IMG/VR virus record: IMGVR_UViG_2698536590_000004 | Span: 1-33,618 of that record | Reading direction: 5' to 3' (one strand) | Length of the DNA: 33,618 nt | Source: a virus | Taxonomy: Duplodnaviria; Heunggongvirae; Uroviricota; Caudoviricetes | Shown: in pieces, positions 9,934 to 30,600 of the stretch | How the letters are laid out: each line of letters begins with the position of its first letter | Numbering within the stretch: the first letter of the stretch is position 1 | Notes under the pieces: model-generated | What the model was told of the DNA's origin: nothing | The model's database searches: none | Seen by the model: only the letters and a program-made list of their open reading frames with translations | Made by a program: the position numbers and the translations under genes

Positions 9934-10195
9934 CGAGATTAAAGTGCATTAGTTCAGATGCAAATTGACATTTTGTGGCACAGGGTAGAGCTAGCGTGGT
10001 TGTCCGCTTTGTGCCAACAGCGGACATTATGGAAGGTCAGAGTTAAAGATTAAAATGGGATGCTGTGTGTTTTCTCCAGGTTTTGCTCTATACCTTTCGG
10101 GATACTCCACCGACAGAATACGAAAATCAACATTATCAACGGCTCGAAGTGTCTAGATTATCCATGGCAATTCATGGGAAATCCCATCCAACGGC

Positions 10196-11587
10196 TTATG
10201 CTTCATGTTGCTTTTTGAGATCGCTTCTAGCATAGCTCCACTCAATAATGTTGTCGGGTCGTTGCTGATCGAAAAGGATACGGGATTCAATACCATTACC
10301 TAAAAAGCTGGTATTCCCATCTACGTAAGAAGCTATCCCTTGTGAACCAACACGAAGAATATTTTCTAATGGCTGCTTTGTTCTTGCTGCATCGCTAAGG
10401 AGATATAAACCCGGGTACGTTTTGTTAGCACGGTGAAAAAAAAGTTCATTGTCAAAACACATGACGATGATTATTTGTCCCGACATGAGATCGGAGAGCA
10501 TTTCAGTTGGCAGATGCAAACTCATAAATGGTCGAGACAAAGGGTCAAAGAATGAATCATTTATATTCACAACAGGGCTTTTTATACCGAGACTATCCAT
10601 CCATCCATTGAAGGCAACAAAGCCCATTTCAGAATCACGGTACATACCTAAGAACAAACATTCATCAATAGTATCAATTGCCCAATTTTTTCCTCCGCGA
10701 ATAATCTCCCACATTTTAACTAAGCGGTGGGTATAAAATTCAGACGGATGATCTATCTCATTGATTTTAACTTTAGACTGATGAAAGTTGTCAAAGCCCT
10801 CGCCAGTATTAATCGCCTCCAGAACATTCATGCCACGAATGATTTGCCTTTTTATGCGATTAAATTGCTTAACATCATTGTCAGGCATATTGTTAATGAA
10901 GTTTTCTTCAAAGTGCGGACATTCTGAGATAACAGAAAATTCAGCAGCTTCATAAAGCTCATTATTCTTTTCACCTGTTTTAACTTCCACGAGCTGGAAG
11001 CCATCCAGTAGATTAAAGGTGACTAAATCTCCCACATGAACAAATGTGCTCATGTCAGAGACAATCGCTACGGAGTGTTTGTCCTGGTTGATAAGATCGG
11101 CTGCGACCATAGAATCAATTATGTTATCTTCTGATAGATTGTCATTGCTTGCATTAATAGGTAAACGCCGCAAACTAGAGTGTTCTTCATCAAGAATGCT
11201 CCAAATTATTGAGTCAATACAACGGCGAAGAATAAGAATTTCAAATTTTTTTAAACTTATTTCATCAATACACTTTTCTTTATTTTCTTTATCCTTGTTT
11301 CGATGGTGCTCTTTTTTTTCAGTTTCCAATCTTTTTATATCTCTCAGCCGAATAATAATCTCAAAAGATATGATTTTTTGTGAGTCTTTCCAATTTTTGA
11401 GACAGGTTTCATACTCTGCAAGAAAATCCTCATCATTGGAAGGTAGTTCTTGAATTGGATTCCCTCCCCTTATCATTTTGGCAAGTGCATGCATTAAAGA
11501 TACATAATGAGGTGATAAAATTGTCCAAAACTTCCTAAACGGTTTGTACTTTTCAAGAAAAGTTGACTCATCAGTATAATTCATCAT
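10196..11587 (-). CDS. Uncharacterised 463-aa protein, partner of the AbiH-like gene; candidate PD-(D/E)xK-type nuclease motif
   Basis: Strongly AT-rich ORF 89 bp downstream of the AbiH-like gene on the same strand; ATG at 11587 with GAGG RBS (track start 11593 is TTG); segment VHVGDLVTFNLLDGFQLVEVKTGE fits a D...ExK signature; no Walker or HTH motif seen. Confidence 0.7.
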   Translation of the reverse strand: MMNYTDESTFLEKYKPFRKFWTILSPHYVSLMHALAKMIRGGNPIQELPSNDEDFLAEYETCLKNWKDSQKIISFEIIIRLRDIKRLETEKKEHHRNKDKENKEKCIDEISLKKFEILILRRCIDSIIWSILDEEHSSLRRLPINASNDNLSEDNIIDSMVAADLINQDKHSVAIVSDMSTFVHVGDLVTFNLLDGFQLVEVKTGEKNNELYEAAEFSVISECPHFEENFINNMPDNDVKQFNRIKRQIIRGMNVLEAINTGEGFDNFHQSKVKINEIDHPSEFYTHRLVKMWEIIRGGKNWAIDTIDECLFLGMYRDSEMGFVAFNGWMDSLGIKSPVVNINDSFFDPLSRPFMSLHLPTEMLSDLMSGQIIIVMCFDNELFFHRANKTYPGLYLLSDAARTKQPLENILRVGSQGIASYVDGNTSFLGNGIESRILFDQQRPDNIIEWSYARSDLKKQHEA

Positions 11588-11676
11588 AACCAAACCTCAT
11601 TCCTCTTATCTATTTTCCTCAAGGTATAAAATACCAGCCTTTTTTACATAATTATAGTTATAATATGAAGTCTCAT

Positions 11677-12546
11677 TCAGATATCTTCATACTGTACGTA
11701 AGAAATATTTGAGCCTCTGACACCATAATCTTCTAAACTGCCTGATTTTTTCTCACCTCTATATAAAGCAATTATCCATCGAGCATTTTCTTGGATACTT
11801 TTATTTATTTCAGTAAAGTATTCACCGTCAACTTCGGCGAGCGAGTGGCCTAAAACGATGACCTCGTCCACATTTTTAAGCGATGAGAAAAAAACGTTTT
11901 CTTCTTTAATTATGTCTTCGCTGGGCTTGAATGTATTACCGAAGTATTCGTTTATTCTGTCGTATGCCTCTGCTATTCTTGTATCTTGATCCGGTCCTAT
12001 ATATGGATTTAGTGACTTTTCCACCCTAAAACTATGACCAAGTATGAGATCGTCATCGTAACTACAATTGCCGTGAATATGTATGATTTGCTCGTCTGGA
12101 ACGGCATAGATCTGCTGCAAGGTATTTGTATAATTAAATGAAAAATAGATGCTTTCTCTTGGTATGGGCGGGATGTATTGCTTAGGATTGTAAGCATCGG
12201 CTATGTTAATCCCTTTAACCCAATCAGCGAATTGCTCCTTCAAACGAGCTGACAGCATTTGTGTGATTTTATTTACTTCATATTGGTAATCGTGATGATA
12301 AGCATCGCTCCAATCATCGGTATTGTATGAAGCCAAAAATATCTCACTGTTTTGAAGGATAAGCTCATAATCAATTTCACCTAAAGCATTTTCTAACTCA
12401 TTCCACTCGTCCCCAGCAGGAATGTATTCTTCTATCGCGTCATATAGATCTTGGTCATTTTTTTCTACATACGACTTAAAGTGCTTGTATCCTGTTGGTA
12501 AGCCATGACGCATGTCAAATCCATTTCCTATTATGTAAAGCCTCAT
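11677..12546 (-). CDS. AbiH-family abortive-infection-like protein
   Basis: 290 aa from ATG at 12546 (AAGGGA RBS); N-terminal MRLYIIGNGFDMRHGLPTGY matches the AbiH-family IIGNGFD signature as I recall it (Pfam AbiH), plus HIHG and VLGHSL...VD..Y motifs; markedly AT-rich. Confidence 0.75.
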   Translation of the reverse strand: MRLYIIGNGFDMRHGLPTGYKHFKSYVEKNDQDLYDAIEEYIPAGDEWNELENALGEIDYELILQNSEIFLASYNTDDWSDAYHHDYQYEVNKITQMLSARLKEQFADWVKGINIADAYNPKQYIPPIPRESIYFSFNYTNTLQQIYAVPDEQIIHIHGNCSYDDDLILGHSFRVEKSLNPYIGPDQDTRIAEAYDRINEYFGNTFKPSEDIIKEENVFFSSLKNVDEVIVLGHSLAEVDGEYFTEINKSIQENARWIIALYRGEKKSGSLEDYGVRGSNISYVQYEDI

Positions 12547-12860
12547 TGTTTTTCCCTTAGTCGAATTGTATAAAAATACTAACATGGCCTGCTCCACGTT
12601 GACTACTATCCCCTCCTTTGAGTAATGCCTTCATCAGATGTAACAACATTTCCGAGCTTCCACAGTTCGCTCAAAGCGGACTAGAAGGTTAGCTTGCGTC
12701 GGACTTGGCGTATTTAAAGAAGTGCTGGTGGAGACTGGTTGTTGTGTTCCATTTCTACAGAACAAAATCACAGAAACTATACCCAATAGTTATATTGAAT
12801 CAATGATGAGACAGCCTCATATTTATCAGGACTGGTGTACGTCCAATACAGGAGGTTGTC

Positions 12861-12950
12861 GTGCTGGTTCTCAAATATGCGCTAGCTATTGCGGCTGTAA
12901 TGGCAATTTATTGTCTTGCTGTTGTTCTTACGGATCGCCTTTCTGATTGA
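12861..12950 (+). CDS. Possible 29-codon hydrophobic peptide ORF (MLVLKYALAIAAVMAIYCLAVVLTDRLSD); speculative
   Basis: GTG start 5 nt after a perfect AGGAGG; single predicted TM helix; not in the ORF track (too short); followed by a 9-bp-stem hairpin CTATCTGCC/GGCAGATAG. Confidence 0.2.
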   Translation: MLVLKYALAIAAVMAIYCLAVVLTDRLSD

Positions 12951-13161
12951 TTTTATATTGGCGAGGTGACGTGAGTTAAGTAGAATTGCTGCGGGTGATT
13001 GAGGCTATCTGCCTCAGGCATGAACACCAAAGGCAGATAGAGAAAAGCCCCAGTTAACATTACGCGTCCTGCAAGACGCTTAACATTAATCTGAGGCTCA
13101 ATCTATGAACAGCAAATCTAGGTTAGCCTCTTACGTGCCGGAAGGCAAGGAGAAGCAGGCT

Positions 13162-13317
13162 ATGAAGCAGCAAAAGGCGATGTTAATCGCCCTGATCGTC
13201 ATCTGTTTAACCGTCATAGTGACGGCACTGGTAACGAGGAAAGACCTCTGCGAGGTACGAATCCGAACCGGCCAGACGGAGGTCGCTGTCTTCACAGCTT
13301 ACGAACCTGAGGAGTAA
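13162..13317 (+). CDS. hok: Hok/Gef-family type I toxin (HokD/RelF-like, 51 aa)
   Basis: MKQQKAMLIALIVICLTVIVTALVTRKDLCEVRIRTGQTEVAVFTAYEPEE matches the Hok family and, as I recall it, E. coli HokD; AAGGAG RBS; in-frame upstream extension to 13105 also open. Confidence 0.85.
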   Translation: MKQQKAMLIALIVICLTVIVTALVTRKDLCEVRIRTGQTEVAVFTAYEPEE

Positions 13318-25204: not shown

Positions 25205-27092
25205 TGCAGCCGGTGCGATAGCAACAGGGCTTGTATCTCTCAATATTCCGGTACCACTGACGACAGTTCAGTGGGCTGATCAGCATTATTATCTGCCAAA
25301 AGAGTCTTCATATACTCCCGGGCAATGGGAAACACTGCCGTTTCAGGTTGCCATCATGAACAGCATGGGGAATGACCGGATCCGCACCGTTAATCTGATT
25401 AAATCGGCGCGTGTTGGTTACACCAAAATGCTGTTGGGGGTGGAGGCTTATTTTATTGAACACAAATCCCGTAACAGCCTGCTTTTTCAGCCGACAGATT
25501 CTGCGGCAGAAGATTTTATGAAATCCCATGTCGAACCAACGATAAGAGACGTTCCTGTATTACTGGAGCTGGCTCCGTGGTTTGGCAGAAAACATCGGGA
25601 CAACACGCTTACCCTGAAACGTTTCTCCTCCGGTGTGGGATTCTGGTGTCTGGGCGGAGCTGCTGCCAAAAACTACCGTGAAAAATCTGTGGATGTGGTC
25701 TGCTATGACGAACTCTCCTCGTTTGAACCGGATGTGGAAAAAGAAGGTTCACCAACTCTGCTTGGCGATAAGCGTATCGAAGGTTCGGTATGGCCTAAAT
25801 CCATACGCGGCTCAACGCCCAAAATTAAAGGTTTTTGCCAGATTGAAAAAGCCGCGAACGAATCTGCACATTTTATGCGGTTTTATGTGCCATGCCCTCA
25901 TTGTGGTGAAGCCCAGTATCTGAAGTTTGGCGATGATGCGACAACCTTTGGCCTGAAATGGGAGAAGGGCAAGCCGGAGACGGTGTATTACCTGTGTGAA
26001 CATAATGGCTGCGCGATCCGTCAGTCGGAACTTGACCAGACCGACGGGCGGTGGATTTGTGACAATACCGGGATGTGGACGCGTGACGGTCTGACATTTT
26101 ACAGCGCCGGTGATGAGGAAATCCCGCCACCGCGCTCAATCTCGTACCACATCTGGACGGCATACAGCCCGTTCACCACCTGGGTACAGATTGTTTATGA
26201 CTGGCTTGATGCACTGAAGGATCCGAATGGCGTCAAGACGTTCATTAACACCACGCTGGGGGAGCCTTATGAAGAGGCTGTGGCAGAAAAACTGAGCTTT
26301 GAGTTATTGCTGGAAAAAGTCTGCCACTATGATGCGCAGGTTCCCCTGCGGGTGGTTTACCTGACCGCAGGGATCGACTCTCAGAAAAACCGTTATGAGA
26401 TTTATGTCTGGGGCTGGGCTCCTGGCGAAGAAGCTTTTCTGATTGACAAGCAGATCATCATGGGGAGACCGGAAGATGAGGACACCCTTAAACGCGTTGA
26501 TGCCGTGATCCGGAAAAAATACCGTCATGCAGATGGCACTGAAATTTCCATTTCCCGCGTCTGCTGGGATACCGGTGGTATTGACCAGGACATTGTGTAT
26601 CAGCGATCCAGAAAACACGGCACTTTTTTTGTGCTCCCCATCAAAGGGGCGTCGGTGTACGGCAAGCCGGTGATCACCATGCCAAAAAAGCGAAACCAGC
26701 GTGGGGTGTTTTTGTGTGAGGTGGGTTCCGATACCGTCAAGGAAATGCTGTATGCGCGTTTTGCCCTGCCGGTGGTATCTGCCAGTGAAGTCGCACCGTA
26801 TACCTTCCGTTTTCCGGATAACCCGGACATTTTTTCTGATGTTGAAGCTAAACAACTCGTGGCAGAAGAGCTGGTTGAAAAAGTTGTGAACGGGCGGGTG
26901 AAACTCCAGTGGGATGCCAGAAAACGGCGTAATGAAGCTCTGGACTGTCTGGTGTATGCCTATGCAGCGCTGCGCATTTCCGTTCAGCGGTGGCAACTGG
27001 ATCTGGATGCACTGGCCCGCGCCAGAAGAGATGAACAGGACGACGATGAAATGACTATTGAAGAAATCGCGGCTGCTCTGAGTGGAGGATAA
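25173..27092 (+). CDS. A: Terminase large subunit (lambda gpA homolog)
   Basis: 639-aa ORF with extensive similarity to lambda gpA as I recall it ([65 protein letters not shown]); start overlaps the Nu1 end. Confidence 0.95.
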
Positions 27093-27305
27093 GTGATGAT
27101 TTATACGCATGAAATGCTATGCGATGCCCGCCGGGCGTTACATGAACTGATGATCGGACGTGCTGTGGTTTCCGTCAGCAAGGACGGGCGTCAGGTTCAG
27201 TATTCGCGGGCGACAATTGGTGAACTGCGTCAGTATATTGAAGAGCTGGAAAGTGCGCTGGGTGTATCCGGACGGCGTCGTGGCCCGGCAGGAGTGGGGC
27301 TGTGA
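27093..27305 (+). CDS. W: Head-tail joining protein W (lambda gpW homolog)
   Basis: 70-aa ORF immediately after A; ARRALHELMIGRAVVSVSKDGRQVQYSRATIGELRQYIEELE...RRRGPAG resembles lambda gpW. Confidence 0.85.
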   Translation: MMIYTHEMLCDARRALHELMIGRAVVSVSKDGRQVQYSRATIGELRQYIEELESALGVSGRRRGPAGVGL

Positions 27306-27898
27306 ACGGGGAACTGGTGGATATTCATGGGCAGCCTTTACGGCAAAGCATGGGATATTCTGGTGGTGGTTCCGGGTTCGGTGGGCAAATGGCAGAATGG
27401 CTGCCTGCACCGGAAAGTGCCGACGTGGCGCTCTTACCTTCCATTCATCTGGGTAACGCCCGCGCGGATGAGCTGGTCCGTAACAACGGTATTGCATCGA
27501 ATGCAGTGGAAATTCATAAGGATCATATTGTCGGGCACATGTTTCGTCTGAGTTACCGTCCCAACTGGCGCTGGCTGGGGATGTCGGAAGCAGATTCACA
27601 TGCTTTTATTGAAGATGTTGAGGCGGCGTGGATGGAATACTGCGATCCGGTGTTTGGTACGATGGATGTGGAAGGGCGTCGTTCGTTTACCGAATTTATT
27701 CGTGAAGGGGTGGGGGTCCATACGTTTAACGGTGAAATTTTTGTCCAGCCCGTATGGGATGCGGAATCCACGTCATTATTCCGGACGAAATTCAAAACCA
27801 TCAGCCCGAAGCGTGTCAGTACACCCGGTTATGGTACCCGAACACGGCACTGGTCGGTGTACAGGTGGACTCGGAGCAGTTCGGCAGCCAGCAGGTGA
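27302..27898 (+). pseudogene. B: Portal protein B, N-terminal fragment only (B'), fused by deletion to the J region
   Basis: Resembles the lambda portal N-terminus (YSGGGSGFGG, LVRNNG, FNGEIFVQ, LFRTKFKTISPKR) for about 175 aa, then runs into J-derived sequence out of frame and stops at 27898; a full portal is about 530 aa. Confidence 0.8.
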
Positions 27899-30600
27899 GT
27901 CGTAATTATCATCTTCGCGGGCGCATTCTGCAGGTGCCGTCGAACTATAACCCGCAGACGCGGCAATACAGCGGTATCTGGGACGGAACGTTTAAACCGG
28001 CATACAGCAACAACATGGCCTGGTGTCTGTGGGATATGCTGACCCATCCGCGCTACGGCATGGGGAAACGTCTTGGTGCGGCGGATGTGGATAAATGGGC
28101 GCTGTATGTCATCGGCCAGTACTGCGACCAGTCAGTGCCGGACGGCTTTGGCGGCACGGAGCCGCGCATCACCTGTAATGCGTACCTGACCACACAGCGT
28201 AAGGCGTGGGATGTGCTCAGCGATTTCTGCTCGGCGATGCGCTGTATGCCGGTATGGAACGGGCAGACGCTGACGTTCGTGCAGGACCGACCGTCGGATA
28301 AGGCGTGGACCTATAACCGCAGTAATGTGGTGATGCCGGATGATGGCGCGCCGTTCCGCTACAGCTTCAGCGCCCTGAAGGACCGCCATAATGCCGTTGA
28401 GGTGAACTGGATTGACCCGAACAACGGCTGGGAGACGGCGACAGAGCTTGTTGAAGATACGCAGGCCATTGCCCGTTACGGTCGTAATGTTACGAAGATG
28501 GATGCCTTTGGCTGTACCAGCCGGGGGCAGGCACACCGCGCCGGGCTGTGGCTGATTAAAACAGAACTGCTGGAAACGCAGACCGTGGATTTCAGCGTCG
28601 GCGCAGAAGGGCTTCGCCATGTACCGGGCGATGTTATTGAAATCTGCGATGATGACTATGCCGGTATCAGCACCGGTGGTCGTGTGCTGGCGGTGAACAG
28701 CCAGACCCGGACGCTGACGCTCGACCGTGAAATCACGCTGCCATCCTCCGGTACCGCGCTGATAAGCCTGGTTGACGGAAGTGGCAATCCGGTCAGCGTG
28801 GAGGTTCAGTCCGTCACCGACGGCGTGAAGGTAAAAGTGAGCCGTGTTCCTGACGGTGTTGCTGAATACAGCGTATGGGGGCTGAAGCTGCCGACGCTGC
28901 GCCAGCGACTGTTCCGCTGCGTGAGTATCCGTGAGAACGACGACGGCACGTATGCCATCACCGCCGTGCAGCATGTGCCGGAAAAAGAGGCCATCGTGGA
29001 TAACGGGGCGCACTTTGACGGCGAACAGAGTGGCACGGTGAATGGTGTCACGCCGCCAGCGGTGCAGCACCTGACCGCAGAAGTCACTGCAGACAGCGGG
29101 GAATATCAGGTGCTGGCGCGATGGGACACACCGAAGGTGGTGAAGGGCGTGAGCTTCCTGCTCCGTCTGACCGTAACAGCGGACGACGGCAGTTAGCGGC
29201 TGGTCAGCACGGCCCGGACGACGGAAACCACATACCGCTTCACGCAACTGGCGCTGGGGAACTACAGGCTGACAGTCCGGGCGGTAAATGCGTGGGGGCA
29301 GCAGGGCGATCCGGCGTCGGTATCGTTCCGGATTGCCGCACCGGCAGCACCGTCGAGGATTGAGCTGACGCCGGGCTATTTTCAGATAACCGCCACGCCG
29401 CATCTTGCCGTTTATGACCCGACGGTACAGTTTGAGTTCTGGTTCTCGGAAAAGCAGATTGCGGATATCAGACAGGTTGAAACCAGCGCGCGTTATCTTG
29501 GTACGGCGCTGTACTGGATAGCCGCCAGTATCAATATCAAACCGGGCCATGATTATTACTTTTATATCCGCAGTGTGAACACCGTTGGCAAATCGGCATT
29601 CGTGGAGTCCGTCGGTCGGGCGAGCGATGATGCGGAAGGTTACCTGGATTTTTTCAAAGGCAAGATAACCGAATCCCATCTCGGCAAGGAGCTGCTGGAA
29701 AAAGTCGATCTGACGGAGGATAACGCCAGCAGACTGGAGGAGTTTTCGAAAGAGTGGAAGGACGCCAACGATAAGTGGAATGCCATGTGGGCTGTCAAAA
29801 TTGAGCAGACCAAAGACGGCAAACATTATGTCGCGGGTATTGGCCTCAGCATGGAGGACACGGAGGAAGGCAAACTGAGCCAGTTTCTGGTTGCCGCCAA
29901 TCGTATCGCGTTTATTGACCCGGCAAACGGGAATGAAACGCCGATGTTTGTGGCGCAGGGCAACCAGATATTCATGAACGACGTGTTCCTGAAGCGCCTG
30001 ACGGCCCCCACCATTACCAGCGGCGGCAATCCTCCGGCCTTTTCCCTGACACCGGACGGAAAGCTGACCGCTAAAAATGCGGATATCAGTGGCAGTGTGA
30101 ATGCGAACTCCGGGACGCTCAGTAATGTGACGATAGCTGAAAACTGTACGATAAACGGTACGCTGAGGGCGGAAAAAATCGTCGGGGACATTGTAAAGGC
30201 GGCGAGCGCGGCTTTTCCGCGCCAGCGTGAAAGCAGTGTGGACTGGCCGTCAGGTACCCGTACTGTCACCGTGACCGATGACCATCCTTTTGATCGCCAG
30301 ATAGTGGTGCTTCCGCTGACGTTTCGCGGAAGTAAGCGTACTGTCAGCGGCAGGACAACGTATTCGATGTGTTATCTGAAAGTACTGATGAACGGTGCGG
30401 TGATTTATGATGGCGCGGCGAACGAGGCGGTACAGGTGTTCTCCCGTATTGTTGACATGCCAGCGGGTCGGGGAAACGTGATCCTGACGTTCACGCTTAC
30501 GTCCACACGGCATTCGGCAGATATTCCGCCGGATACGTTTGCCAGCGATGTGCAGGTTATGGTGATTAAGAAACAGGCGCTGGGCATCAGCGTGGTCTGA
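27754..30600 (+). pseudogene. J: Tail tip/host-specificity protein J, C-terminal ~930 codons only ('J), with an in-frame TAG at 29194-29196
   Basis: J-like sequence begins near 27815 (LWYPNTALVGVQVDSEQFG...) and runs to 30600 in one frame, interrupted by a single TAG; the N-terminal part of J and all genes between B and J are absent. Confidence 0.8.

Follow-up and report, generated by a model that had tools for sequence, protein, structure and literature searches.

Does a compact block of two neighboring genes in an E. coli prophage make up a new anti-phage system, in which an AbiH-like protein works together with a putative nuclease? An earlier note on the window (the whole stretch of 33,618 nucleotides that was analyzed) had put this forward as a candidate novel system. 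We found that the block is a genuine defense cassette but does not constitute a new system of two genes, because the AbiH family and the partner, DS-37, are each known to work alone, so that both parts are already known.

Layout and composition of the locus

The open reading frame coordinates were re-read, and the two co-oriented genes that the earlier note had placed at 11677..12546 and 10196..11587 were confirmed, both on the minus strand with 89 bp between them. Its description of the block as AT rich also agreed with the GC profile, which showed a GC content of 0.34 to 0.38 at 10.5 to 12.5 kb versus 0.47 to 0.57 in the flanks; the two genes together make up a block of 34 to 37% GC. As had been noted, the block lies between replication genes and the hok region, with a replisome-organizer/DUF977 pair on one side and hokD on the other, and the flanking phage genes are antisense to it. 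The host element is a lambdoid, Qin-like prophage of E. coli, the insertion site of which adjoins ynfA-rspAB. The annotation of locus L001, which is 99.8% identical to the window locus, was used for neighboring genes such as hokD. The main features are as follows.

10174..12583, minus strand: mobile two-gene cassette, bounded by the homologous stretch shared with an IncFIB phage-like plasmid
10196..11587, minus strand: DS-37 gene, 463 aa, equal to WP_000982358.1 (identity to the L001 protein and to the Table S8 sequence, below)
11588..11676, minus strand: AbiH-DS-37 spacer, 89 bp, conserved (90 bp in the phage-like plasmid copy)
11677..12546, minus strand: AbiH-family gene, 289 aa, putative SIR2-like NADase effector (PF14253, PADLOC, and phrog_19951; SIR2-like from the literature)
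13162..13317, plus strand: hokD, right flank of the moron slot (annotation of L001)

Neither a terminator-like hairpin nor a convincing promoter was seen in the spacer, and the promoter and terminator scans returned sites no more often than in shuffled sequence. No antitoxin-like small gene was present in the ORF list of the window. The slot by hokD in Qin-like prophages is a site of swappable cargo: relBE-ydfV-flxA adjoins hokD in the corresponding position of Qin in K-12 MG1655, and both AbiH and DS-37 were absent from the region of that prophage that was examined.

The upstream gene is a member of the AbiH family

Judged from its sequence, the upstream gene is an AbiH-family member, and the corresponding call in the earlier note passed the profile check. 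The 289-aa product begins with MRLYIIGNGFD, contains all of the motifs IIGNGFD, FNYTNT, and HIHG, and matched PF14253 over its full length (profile positions 1 to 258 of 260; E value, 7.8e-69; 233 bits versus a cutoff of 30.9). The PADLOC AbiH model matched at 1.2e-27, with the match confined to residues 100 to 267, and phrog_19951 matched at 1e-180, while searches of the PDB by sequence found no relative. The RefSeq start is longer (ATG at 12585, 302 aa); the AbiH of the phage-like plasmid is annotated with the 289-aa start, and DNA homology to that plasmid starts at 12583.

A SIR2-like fold has been described for other AbiH proteins (PMC13064643; bioRxiv 10.1101/2024.09.18.613514). The family is a one-gene defense, as shown in Lactococcus (PMC13064643), and a Vibrio member gave 5.7 logs of protection as a single gene (bioRxiv 10.1101/2024.06.14.598830), in agreement with the view of AbiH as a single-gene determinant in the earlier note. 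From family membership, the protein would most likely deplete NAD+ upon infection and thereby cause abortive infection.

The partner gene is DS-37, a published single-gene defense

The 463-aa partner had no match in the family libraries (Pfam, PADLOC 2.0.0, PHROGs, and NCBIfam). The protein, which begins with MMNYT, was identical in 463 of 463 residues to WP_000982358.1, the RefSeq-annotated copy in L001, and its residues 1 to 399 coincide with the printed entry in Table S8 of PMC13092281. In the DefensePredictor study (DeWeirdt et al., Science 2026, PMC13092281), WP_000982358.1 was cloned alone as construct SC24, designated DS-37. With E. coli MG1655 as the host, it was recorded as TRUE for both defensive and replicated (Tables S6 to S8), with -log EOP values of 4.32 on Bas69 and 1.94 on SECphi27 (PMC13092281); the anti-phage activity suspected of the partner is therefore already in print. 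AbiH was left out of the construct because the 89-bp gap exceeds the transcription-unit rule of that study, which admits gaps of 30 bp or less. DS-37 thus protects as a cloned unit without AbiH, which speaks against the suggestion that the two genes act together. The main text of PMC13092281 does not mention DS-37, and no active-site mutant of DS-37 was found reported there. These results remove a false lead, since the "uncharacterized partner" had already been named and given a phenotype in print, and AbiH proteins are established as a one-gene defense.

A PD-(D/E)xK core is plausible in DS-37

Three regions of DS-37 and four codons were mapped.

11192..11434, minus strand: residues 52 to 132, long antiparallel helical hairpin, coiled-coil-like
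10925..11131, minus strand: residues 153 to 221, putative PD-(D/E)xK core (invariant residues, predicted topology, weak SduA_C/NERD)
11054..11056, 11027..11029, 10985..10987, and 10979..10981, minus strand: codons of D178, D187, E201, and K203, respectively
10199..10804, minus strand: residues 262 to 463, conserved alpha/beta C-terminal region, possible sensor or regulatory part

The nuclease call made for the partner survived in part. The motif VHVGDLVTFNLLDGFQLVEVKTGE is present and includes D187, E201, and K203, and in an alignment of 103 diverse homologues (mean column identity, 26%) the residues D178, D187, E201, K203, R244, and Q248, and likewise G205, were invariant in 103 of 103. An AF2 model of the full-length protein (pLDDT, 84; pTM, 0.86) has the core in the order helix-strand-strand-strand-helix, with D187 just ahead of strand 188-192 and E201-K203 at the end of strand 196-200. 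Because the D...ExK motif is invariant and the predicted alpha-beta-beta-beta-alpha topology fits, we regard a PD-(D/E)xK core as plausible. The fold search did not add to this: Foldseek of the model against the PDB returned nothing at E values of 0.001 or less, and sequence searches of the PDB with the single protein and two profiles gave no match.

DS-37 has been annotated as a weak PD-(D/E)xK/NERD match, with an HHpred NERD probability of 0.47 for residues 154 to 204 (PMC13092281, Table S8). In the profile libraries it matched neither SduA_C (PF14082) nor NERD (PF08378), and a scan of the 103 members against the family libraries gave only scattered weak matches, all short of the curated thresholds, including SduA_C in 4 of 103 (best E value, 0.013) and PADLOC SduA at 0.007 in single members. 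Alignment of the family profile by hhalign with Mrr_cat and PDDEXK_4 proteins gave a probability of 0.1; with single sequences as templates, this value is uninformative. The C-terminal region contains the near-invariant residues G264, D266, C310, G314, Y316, P353, and G432 and the invariant P444, and had no family or fold match in the profile libraries and fold searches; the N-terminal extensions of the 670- to 690-aa family members contained no Pfam domains. DS-37 is probably a PD-(D/E)xK nuclease that would act via D187 and E201-x-K203, together with D178 and Q248, although its chemistry, target, and trigger are what we infer, and the N-terminal helical hairpin and the C-terminal alpha/beta region probably control activity or sense phage.

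The pairing is limited to one mobile cassette

The profile of a horizontally acquired moron, which had been suggested for the block, was supported. By blastn, the cassette was 93% identical over 2415 bp to the IncFIB phage-like plasmid pMS-37c, the homology extending 22 bp beyond the stop codon of DS-37 on one side and 37 bp upstream of the ATG of AbiH on the other, and the two genes had diverged in parallel between the prophage and plasmid copies (90.3% and 91.4%). AbiH and DS-37 thus move as a fixed 2.4-kb cassette between a lambdoid prophage and phage-like plasmids. Complete E. coli genomes gave 65 matches with coverage of 80% or more of the cassette, each of which includes both genes (some of these matches were listed, a few of them with an inserted IS element or a DS-37 ORF that is split), and DS-37 without adjoining AbiH sequence was not seen among the matches listed.

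Outside this cassette the two genes part, and the conserved pairing, or new architecture, that had been claimed was not upheld. Conservation of the pairing is confined to a single recent cassette of 2.4 kb, which occurs in prophages of E. coli and in IncFIB phage-like plasmids (about 90% identity). AbiH adjoins DS-37 homologues only in copies that are at least 91% identical, and homologues at 61% identity or less had an AbiH neighbor in none of about 20 contexts. The DS-37 family comprises 681 representatives at E values of 1e-3 or less, mostly solitary prophage morons (about 13 of about 23 distinct contexts were solitary) that neighbor integrase, gpD, gpU, baseplate V, portal, or Mu protease genes. 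About 20 Providencia plasmids carry an AbiH of about 91% identity but no DS-37; the module there (about 90% identical) stops 17 bp after the AbiH stop codon and is followed by an unrelated 484-aa gene. In Klebsiella, that plasmid slot holds a 50%-identical AbiH by itself. The 484-aa gene was considered as a hidden DS-37 analogue and rejected (hhalign probability, 0.1; no family matches). A scan of genome contigs with peptide patterns gave only 3 loci because the patterns were narrow.

Relatives of DS-37 often directly abut other single-gene defenses. An Abi_2/PD-T4-5-like gene lies 16 to 18 bp from the homologue in Pantoea and is kept across lineages (Abi_2, 92%; DS-37 homologue, 78%), PDC-S19 lies 17 bp away in Dickeya, HEC-08 is 124 bp downstream in Rahnella, AbiK is 34 bp away in B. 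cereus, and a Schlafen/AlbA_2 gene overlaps the homologue by 4 bp in Albitalea. These arrangements pose a testable question of synergy for stacked defenses.

Function of the cassette

We consider it likely that the cassette is a 2.4-kb moron with two adjacent, individually sufficient anti-phage genes, with the sufficiency of AbiH taken from its family. The two-gene architecture is unsupported, and a stacked-defense moron of known parts is the plausible reading. Expression of the cassette would run leftwards from the variable slot by hokD in the Qin-like prophage, in the opposite sense to the phage early genes; the two genes probably are cotranscribed and travel together, and the lysogen would gain stacked protection in which neither gene requires the other. 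Co-orientation, the absence of a predicted terminator, parallel divergence, and retention of the pair in the E. coli matches listed are counterpoints to independent genes.

It is unlikely that DS-37-family nucleases are roaming companions and that AbiH-DS-37 is one functional coupling, synergistic or back-up, rather than chance colocation. A companion role would cover the tight operons with AbiH, Abi_2/PD-T4-5-like, PDC-S19, HEC-08, AbiK RT, and Schlafen/AlbA_2 genes.

A single cooperating system, with a sensor and an executor or with synergy beyond the sum of the parts, appears distinctly unlikely. The shared strand, the short spacer without a terminator, the sharp borders of a unit that moves between prophage and plasmid, the parallel divergence, and the joint presence in all 65 E. 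coli matches are in its favor. However, DS-37 is defensive alone (PMC13092281), the AbiH family works as one gene in two other hosts, and each gene occurs without the other in the distant DS-37 contexts and in the Providencia and Klebsiella plasmids.

Very unlikely, in our view, is that the DS-37 family is a promiscuous accessory module that joins interchangeable single-gene abortive-infection effectors in operons, where it could serve as a second layer or as a back-up against anti-defense proteins. The co-oriented tight neighbors in the five genera above fit this, as does the range of effectors (SIR2-like AbiH, HEPN Abi_2/PD-T4-5-like, HEPN-REase PDC-S19, HEC-08, and the AbiK reverse transcriptase). 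However, more than half of the contexts were solitary, the context sample was small and uncontrolled, and defense genes gather in islands and prophage hotspots regardless; among the neighbor families, HEC-08 and AbiH are validated according to the literature covered, AbiK and PD-T4-5 are also validated single-gene systems, and PDC-S19 is a candidate only. That the cassette is mainly a toxin-like addiction or stabilization module for prophage or plasmid maintenance is hardly credible: the slot holds relBE by hokD in K-12 Qin and the cassette also occurs on plasmids, but DS-37 has a direct anti-phage phenotype (PMC13092281), the AbiH family is defensive, and no antitoxin-like small gene accompanies them.

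Comparison with known systems

The slot resembles prophage moron and defense hotspots, such as the P2/P4 hotspots, in being an AT-rich, antisense site with swappable cargo, and P2-like sites (integrase, gpD, gpU, and baseplate) carry DS-37 homologues; unlike those hotspots, the site that separates the replication module from hokD in Qin-like phages was not found described as a hotspot in the literature covered. Shedu (SduA, PF14082) and NERD (PF08378) share with DS-37 a D...ExK core, a variable noncatalytic region, and single-gene defense, whereas the putative nuclease core of DS-37 is central and not C terminal, and no structure of Shedu or NERD came up in its fold searches. The published DS-37 and the partner in the window are the same protein, which was assayed without its AbiH neighbor (PMC13092281).

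The conserved GNGFD, FNYTN, and HIHG motifs of the window AbiH agree with published accounts of AbiH as a SIR2-like protein. The abiH gene of Lactococcus lactis was reportedly described by Prevots in 1996. The full-length PF14253 match places the window AbiH in the family of the Lactococcus lactis protein, although it represents a distant enterobacterial branch and is followed here by DS-37.

A two-gene cassette occupies a variable cargo site

An E. coli lambdoid prophage, integrated next to ynfA-rspAB, makes up the window. Its genes follow the Qin order: integrase, exonuclease, dicB, ydfA, repressors, replisome organizer, DUF977, a cargo slot, hokD, DUF968, rusA, Q, lysis genes, and terminase. 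Between the replication module and hokD, the cargo slot (9934-13161) here contains two genes, antisense to the phage genes on both sides:

11677..12546, minus strand, AbiH gene, 289 aa, start MRLYIIGNGFD
10196..11587, minus strand, DS-37 gene, 463 aa, start MMNYT

K-12 Qin (NC_000913.3 1645119-1647323) instead has relBE, ydfV, and flxA at the corresponding site beside hokD; thus, the slot is a variable cargo site. The AT-rich block was present as the earlier note had described it, with both open reading frames (ORFs), their co-orientation, and the 89-bp spacer. Its GC content was 0.34 to 0.38 across 10.5-12.5 kb versus 0.47 to 0.57 in flanking DNA.

The upstream gene had been called an AbiH family member, and its product indeed matched Pfam AbiH (PF14253) across the whole profile (E = 7.8e-69), as well as PADLOC AbiH (1.2e-27) and phrog_19951 (1e-180). 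No PDB relative was detectable by sequence search. AbiH is described as a sirtuin-like, likely NAD-depleting abortive-infection protein (PMC13064643; bioRxiv 10.1101/2024.09.18.613514) and as a one-gene system, which protected Vibrio by 5.7 logs (bioRxiv 10.1101/2024.06.14.598830). The motifs GNGFD and HIHG, noticed earlier, and FNYTN were found in the window protein and, judged from the sequence and from knowledge of the family, would fit the SIR2-like description. RefSeq starts AbiH at an ATG at 12585, 39 nt further upstream (302 aa), and annotation of the plasmid copy begins at the position corresponding to 12546 (289 aa), with DNA homology to that plasmid starting at 12583. Shine-Dalgarno-like sequences precede both candidate starts, and the Pfam match begins at residue 3 of the 289-aa form.

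The partner is the published defense system DS-37

Searches of Pfam, PADLOC 2.0.0, PHROGs, and NCBIfam gave no match for the 463-aa protein, but it is identical at 463/463 residues to WP_000982358.1, the protein that RefSeq annotates in a locus of 99.8% identity. DeWeirdt et al. ("DefensePredictor," Science 2026, PMC13092281; preprint January 2025) list this accession in their supplementary tables as the sole product of construct SC24 (ECOR assembly GCF_003334665.1, CDS 26984-28375), which was categorized as "Predicted novel defense gene," scored TRUE for both defensive and replicated, and named DS-37. The reported −log(EOP) values are 4.32 on Bas69 and 1.94 on SECphi27 (Table S7). The partner is therefore a published single-gene defense system and not an uncharacterized protein, and the earlier inference of a defense role was sound. 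AbiH is absent from SC24 because it lies 89 bp away and DefensePredictor transcription units join co-oriented genes no more than 30 bp apart. Neither gene was seen in the Qin prophage region, the region examined, of the DefensePredictor test strain K-12 MG1655.

With DS-37 as the query, a word-indexed search gave no more than 48 clusters, from Enterobacterales and Aeromonas; an exhaustive search with a profile extended the family to 681 representatives at E ≤ 1e-3 (502 at E ≤ 1e-10), mostly of 440 to 490 aa. A few members (P0164, P0165, P0167, and P0184) have 669 to 690 aa, with an N-terminal extension of ~250 aa that contains no Pfam domain. Homologues of 485 to 494 aa from Raoultella, Dickeya, Serratia, Yersinia, and Morganella carry an extra lysine/arginine-rich C-terminal tail, KKRIxKKxAxKKIKxARKRSRK (alignment columns 460-500), missing in the E. 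coli and Pantoea proteins; its presence did not correlate with that of a neighbor gene.

DS-37 is a likely nuclease

The family alignment covered 103 members, with a mean column identity of 26% and identities to the query as low as 18%. In it, D178, D187, E201, K203, G205, R244, Q248, and P444 were invariant, and G186, N208, G264, D266, G314, Y316, P353, and G432 were almost invariant. The full-length AlphaFold2 model was confident (pLDDT 84, pTM 0.86), with these elements in order:

52-132, long helical hairpin
153-167, helix, then strand 172-176
188-192, strand, with G186-D187 just ahead
196-200, strand leading into E201-x-K203
206-221, helix, then a long helix bearing R244 and Q248
C-terminal alpha/beta region, last

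In the model, this order would be compatible with a PD-(D/E)xK core. The call made earlier of such a core thus gains from the invariant D187, E201, and K203 and the fitting element order, but Foldseek against the PDB returned nothing at E ≤ 0.001 and profile searches of the PDB gave no match. Shedu SduA_C was the only Pfam family matching more than two members (4/103, best E = 0.013). The published HHpred annotation is PDDEXK, with NERD PF08378 at a probability of 0.47 over residues 154-204 (PMC13092281); no mention of DS-37, and hence no active-site mutant of it, was found in the main text of that paper. A nuclease mechanism is likely but unproven. In the SC24/DS-37 row of Table S8 (PMC13092281), the two trailing columns give 210-212, where the protein has E-L-Y, and 199, where it has L, and the actual E-x-K (201-203) and D (187) numbers stand in the RED7 row; judging from these two rows, the columns look shifted.

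The cassette is mobile, but the pairing is not conserved

Some part of the cassette was found in 118/5426 complete E. coli genomes, 65 of which match at least 80% of it at 99.6 to 99.8% identity. A few of these 65 show decay by IS1 (in AbiH) or ISVsa5 insertion or by a split DS-37 ORF, and most partial matches among those listed (e.g., ETEC O6:H16) are reduced to the first 63 to 175 AbiH codons and have lost DS-37. The pair also occurs at 90.3% and 91.4% identity, with a 90-bp spacer, flanked by DNA ligase and phoH, on ~110-kb IncFIB plasmids that bear phage-like genes, in Enterobacter, Klebsiella, and Raoultella. Homology between window and plasmid spans 12583 to 10174, with a sharp break at each end; therefore, the two genes have passed as a 2.4-kb cassette from one kind of temperate element to another.

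Outside this cassette, co-occurrence failed: across 49 loci with a DS-37 homologue, representing about 23 distinct contexts, AbiH adjoined a DS-37 homologue only at ≥91% DS-37 identity. Other homologues have other co-oriented neighbors.

Co-oriented neighbors of DS-37 homologues
Pantoea plasmids (L002/L015): Abi_2/PD-T4-5-like gene upstream, 16-18 bp
Dickeya (L005): DUF3644-REase gene (PADLOC PDC-S19) upstream, 17 bp
Rahnella plasmid (L012): HEC-08 gene downstream, 124 bp
Bacillus cereus plasmid (L013): AbiK upstream of a fragmented DS-37-like gene, 34 bp
Albitalea (L018): Schlafen/AlbA_2 gene downstream, 4-bp overlap
Morganella, Ewingella, and a DUF900 locus: unknown neighbors, spacing varied

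Under the 30-bp rule, 3/5 of the defense-gene pairings (Pantoea, Dickeya, and Albitalea) would be single transcription units. The B. cereus DS-37-like gene (NZ_CP129006.1, L013 4789-6166, plus strand) is a probable pseudogene, since it is split into three ORFs; an ABC-three-component system lies immediately upstream at this locus.

Solitary homologues made up about 13 of the about 23 contexts, including phage-gene sites (following gpU, next to gpD, between baseplate V and tail S, immediately after integrase, and beside portal or Mu protease), an Aeromonas defense island, and loci in Yersinia and Pseudomonas. Conversely, about 20 Providencia plasmids carry a 91%-identical AbiH without DS-37; there, 90% DNA identity stops 17 bp past the AbiH stop codon, and an unrelated 484-aa gene follows. 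In Klebsiella, the same plasmid slot holds a 50%-identical AbiH on its own. In the Providencia huaxiensis plasmid NZ_CP145919.1 (L016 5181-6635, plus strand), the 484-aa gene follows AbiH by ~300 bp. Its product was ruled out as a DS-37 relative (hhalign probability, 0.1), had no match in Pfam or PADLOC, and may be another uncharacterized defense gene or an alternative neighbor.

A probable stack of two single-gene defenses

The best-supported reading is that AbiH and DS-37 are two independent single-gene defenses stacked in one moron. Co-transcription of the two is probable, because the spacer contains no terminator-like site; a promoter scan performed no better than chance. The two may nevertheless cooperate or act synergistically, as they are co-mobile and have diverged in parallel, and DS-37 relatives repeatedly abut other one-gene effectors tightly. 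An obligate two-gene system is unlikely, because DS-37 has a published phenotype as a single gene and the pairing is not conserved beyond the ≥91%-identical cassette. The conserved pairing and new architecture proposed earlier are thus not supported. In a preprint on phage-plasmids, AbiH and DS-37 both appear in the list of systems found on SSU5-like elements (bioRxiv 10.1101/2025.09.12.675607), and both parts of the cassette are already known, one as the AbiH family and the other as DS-37, published in 2025-2026.
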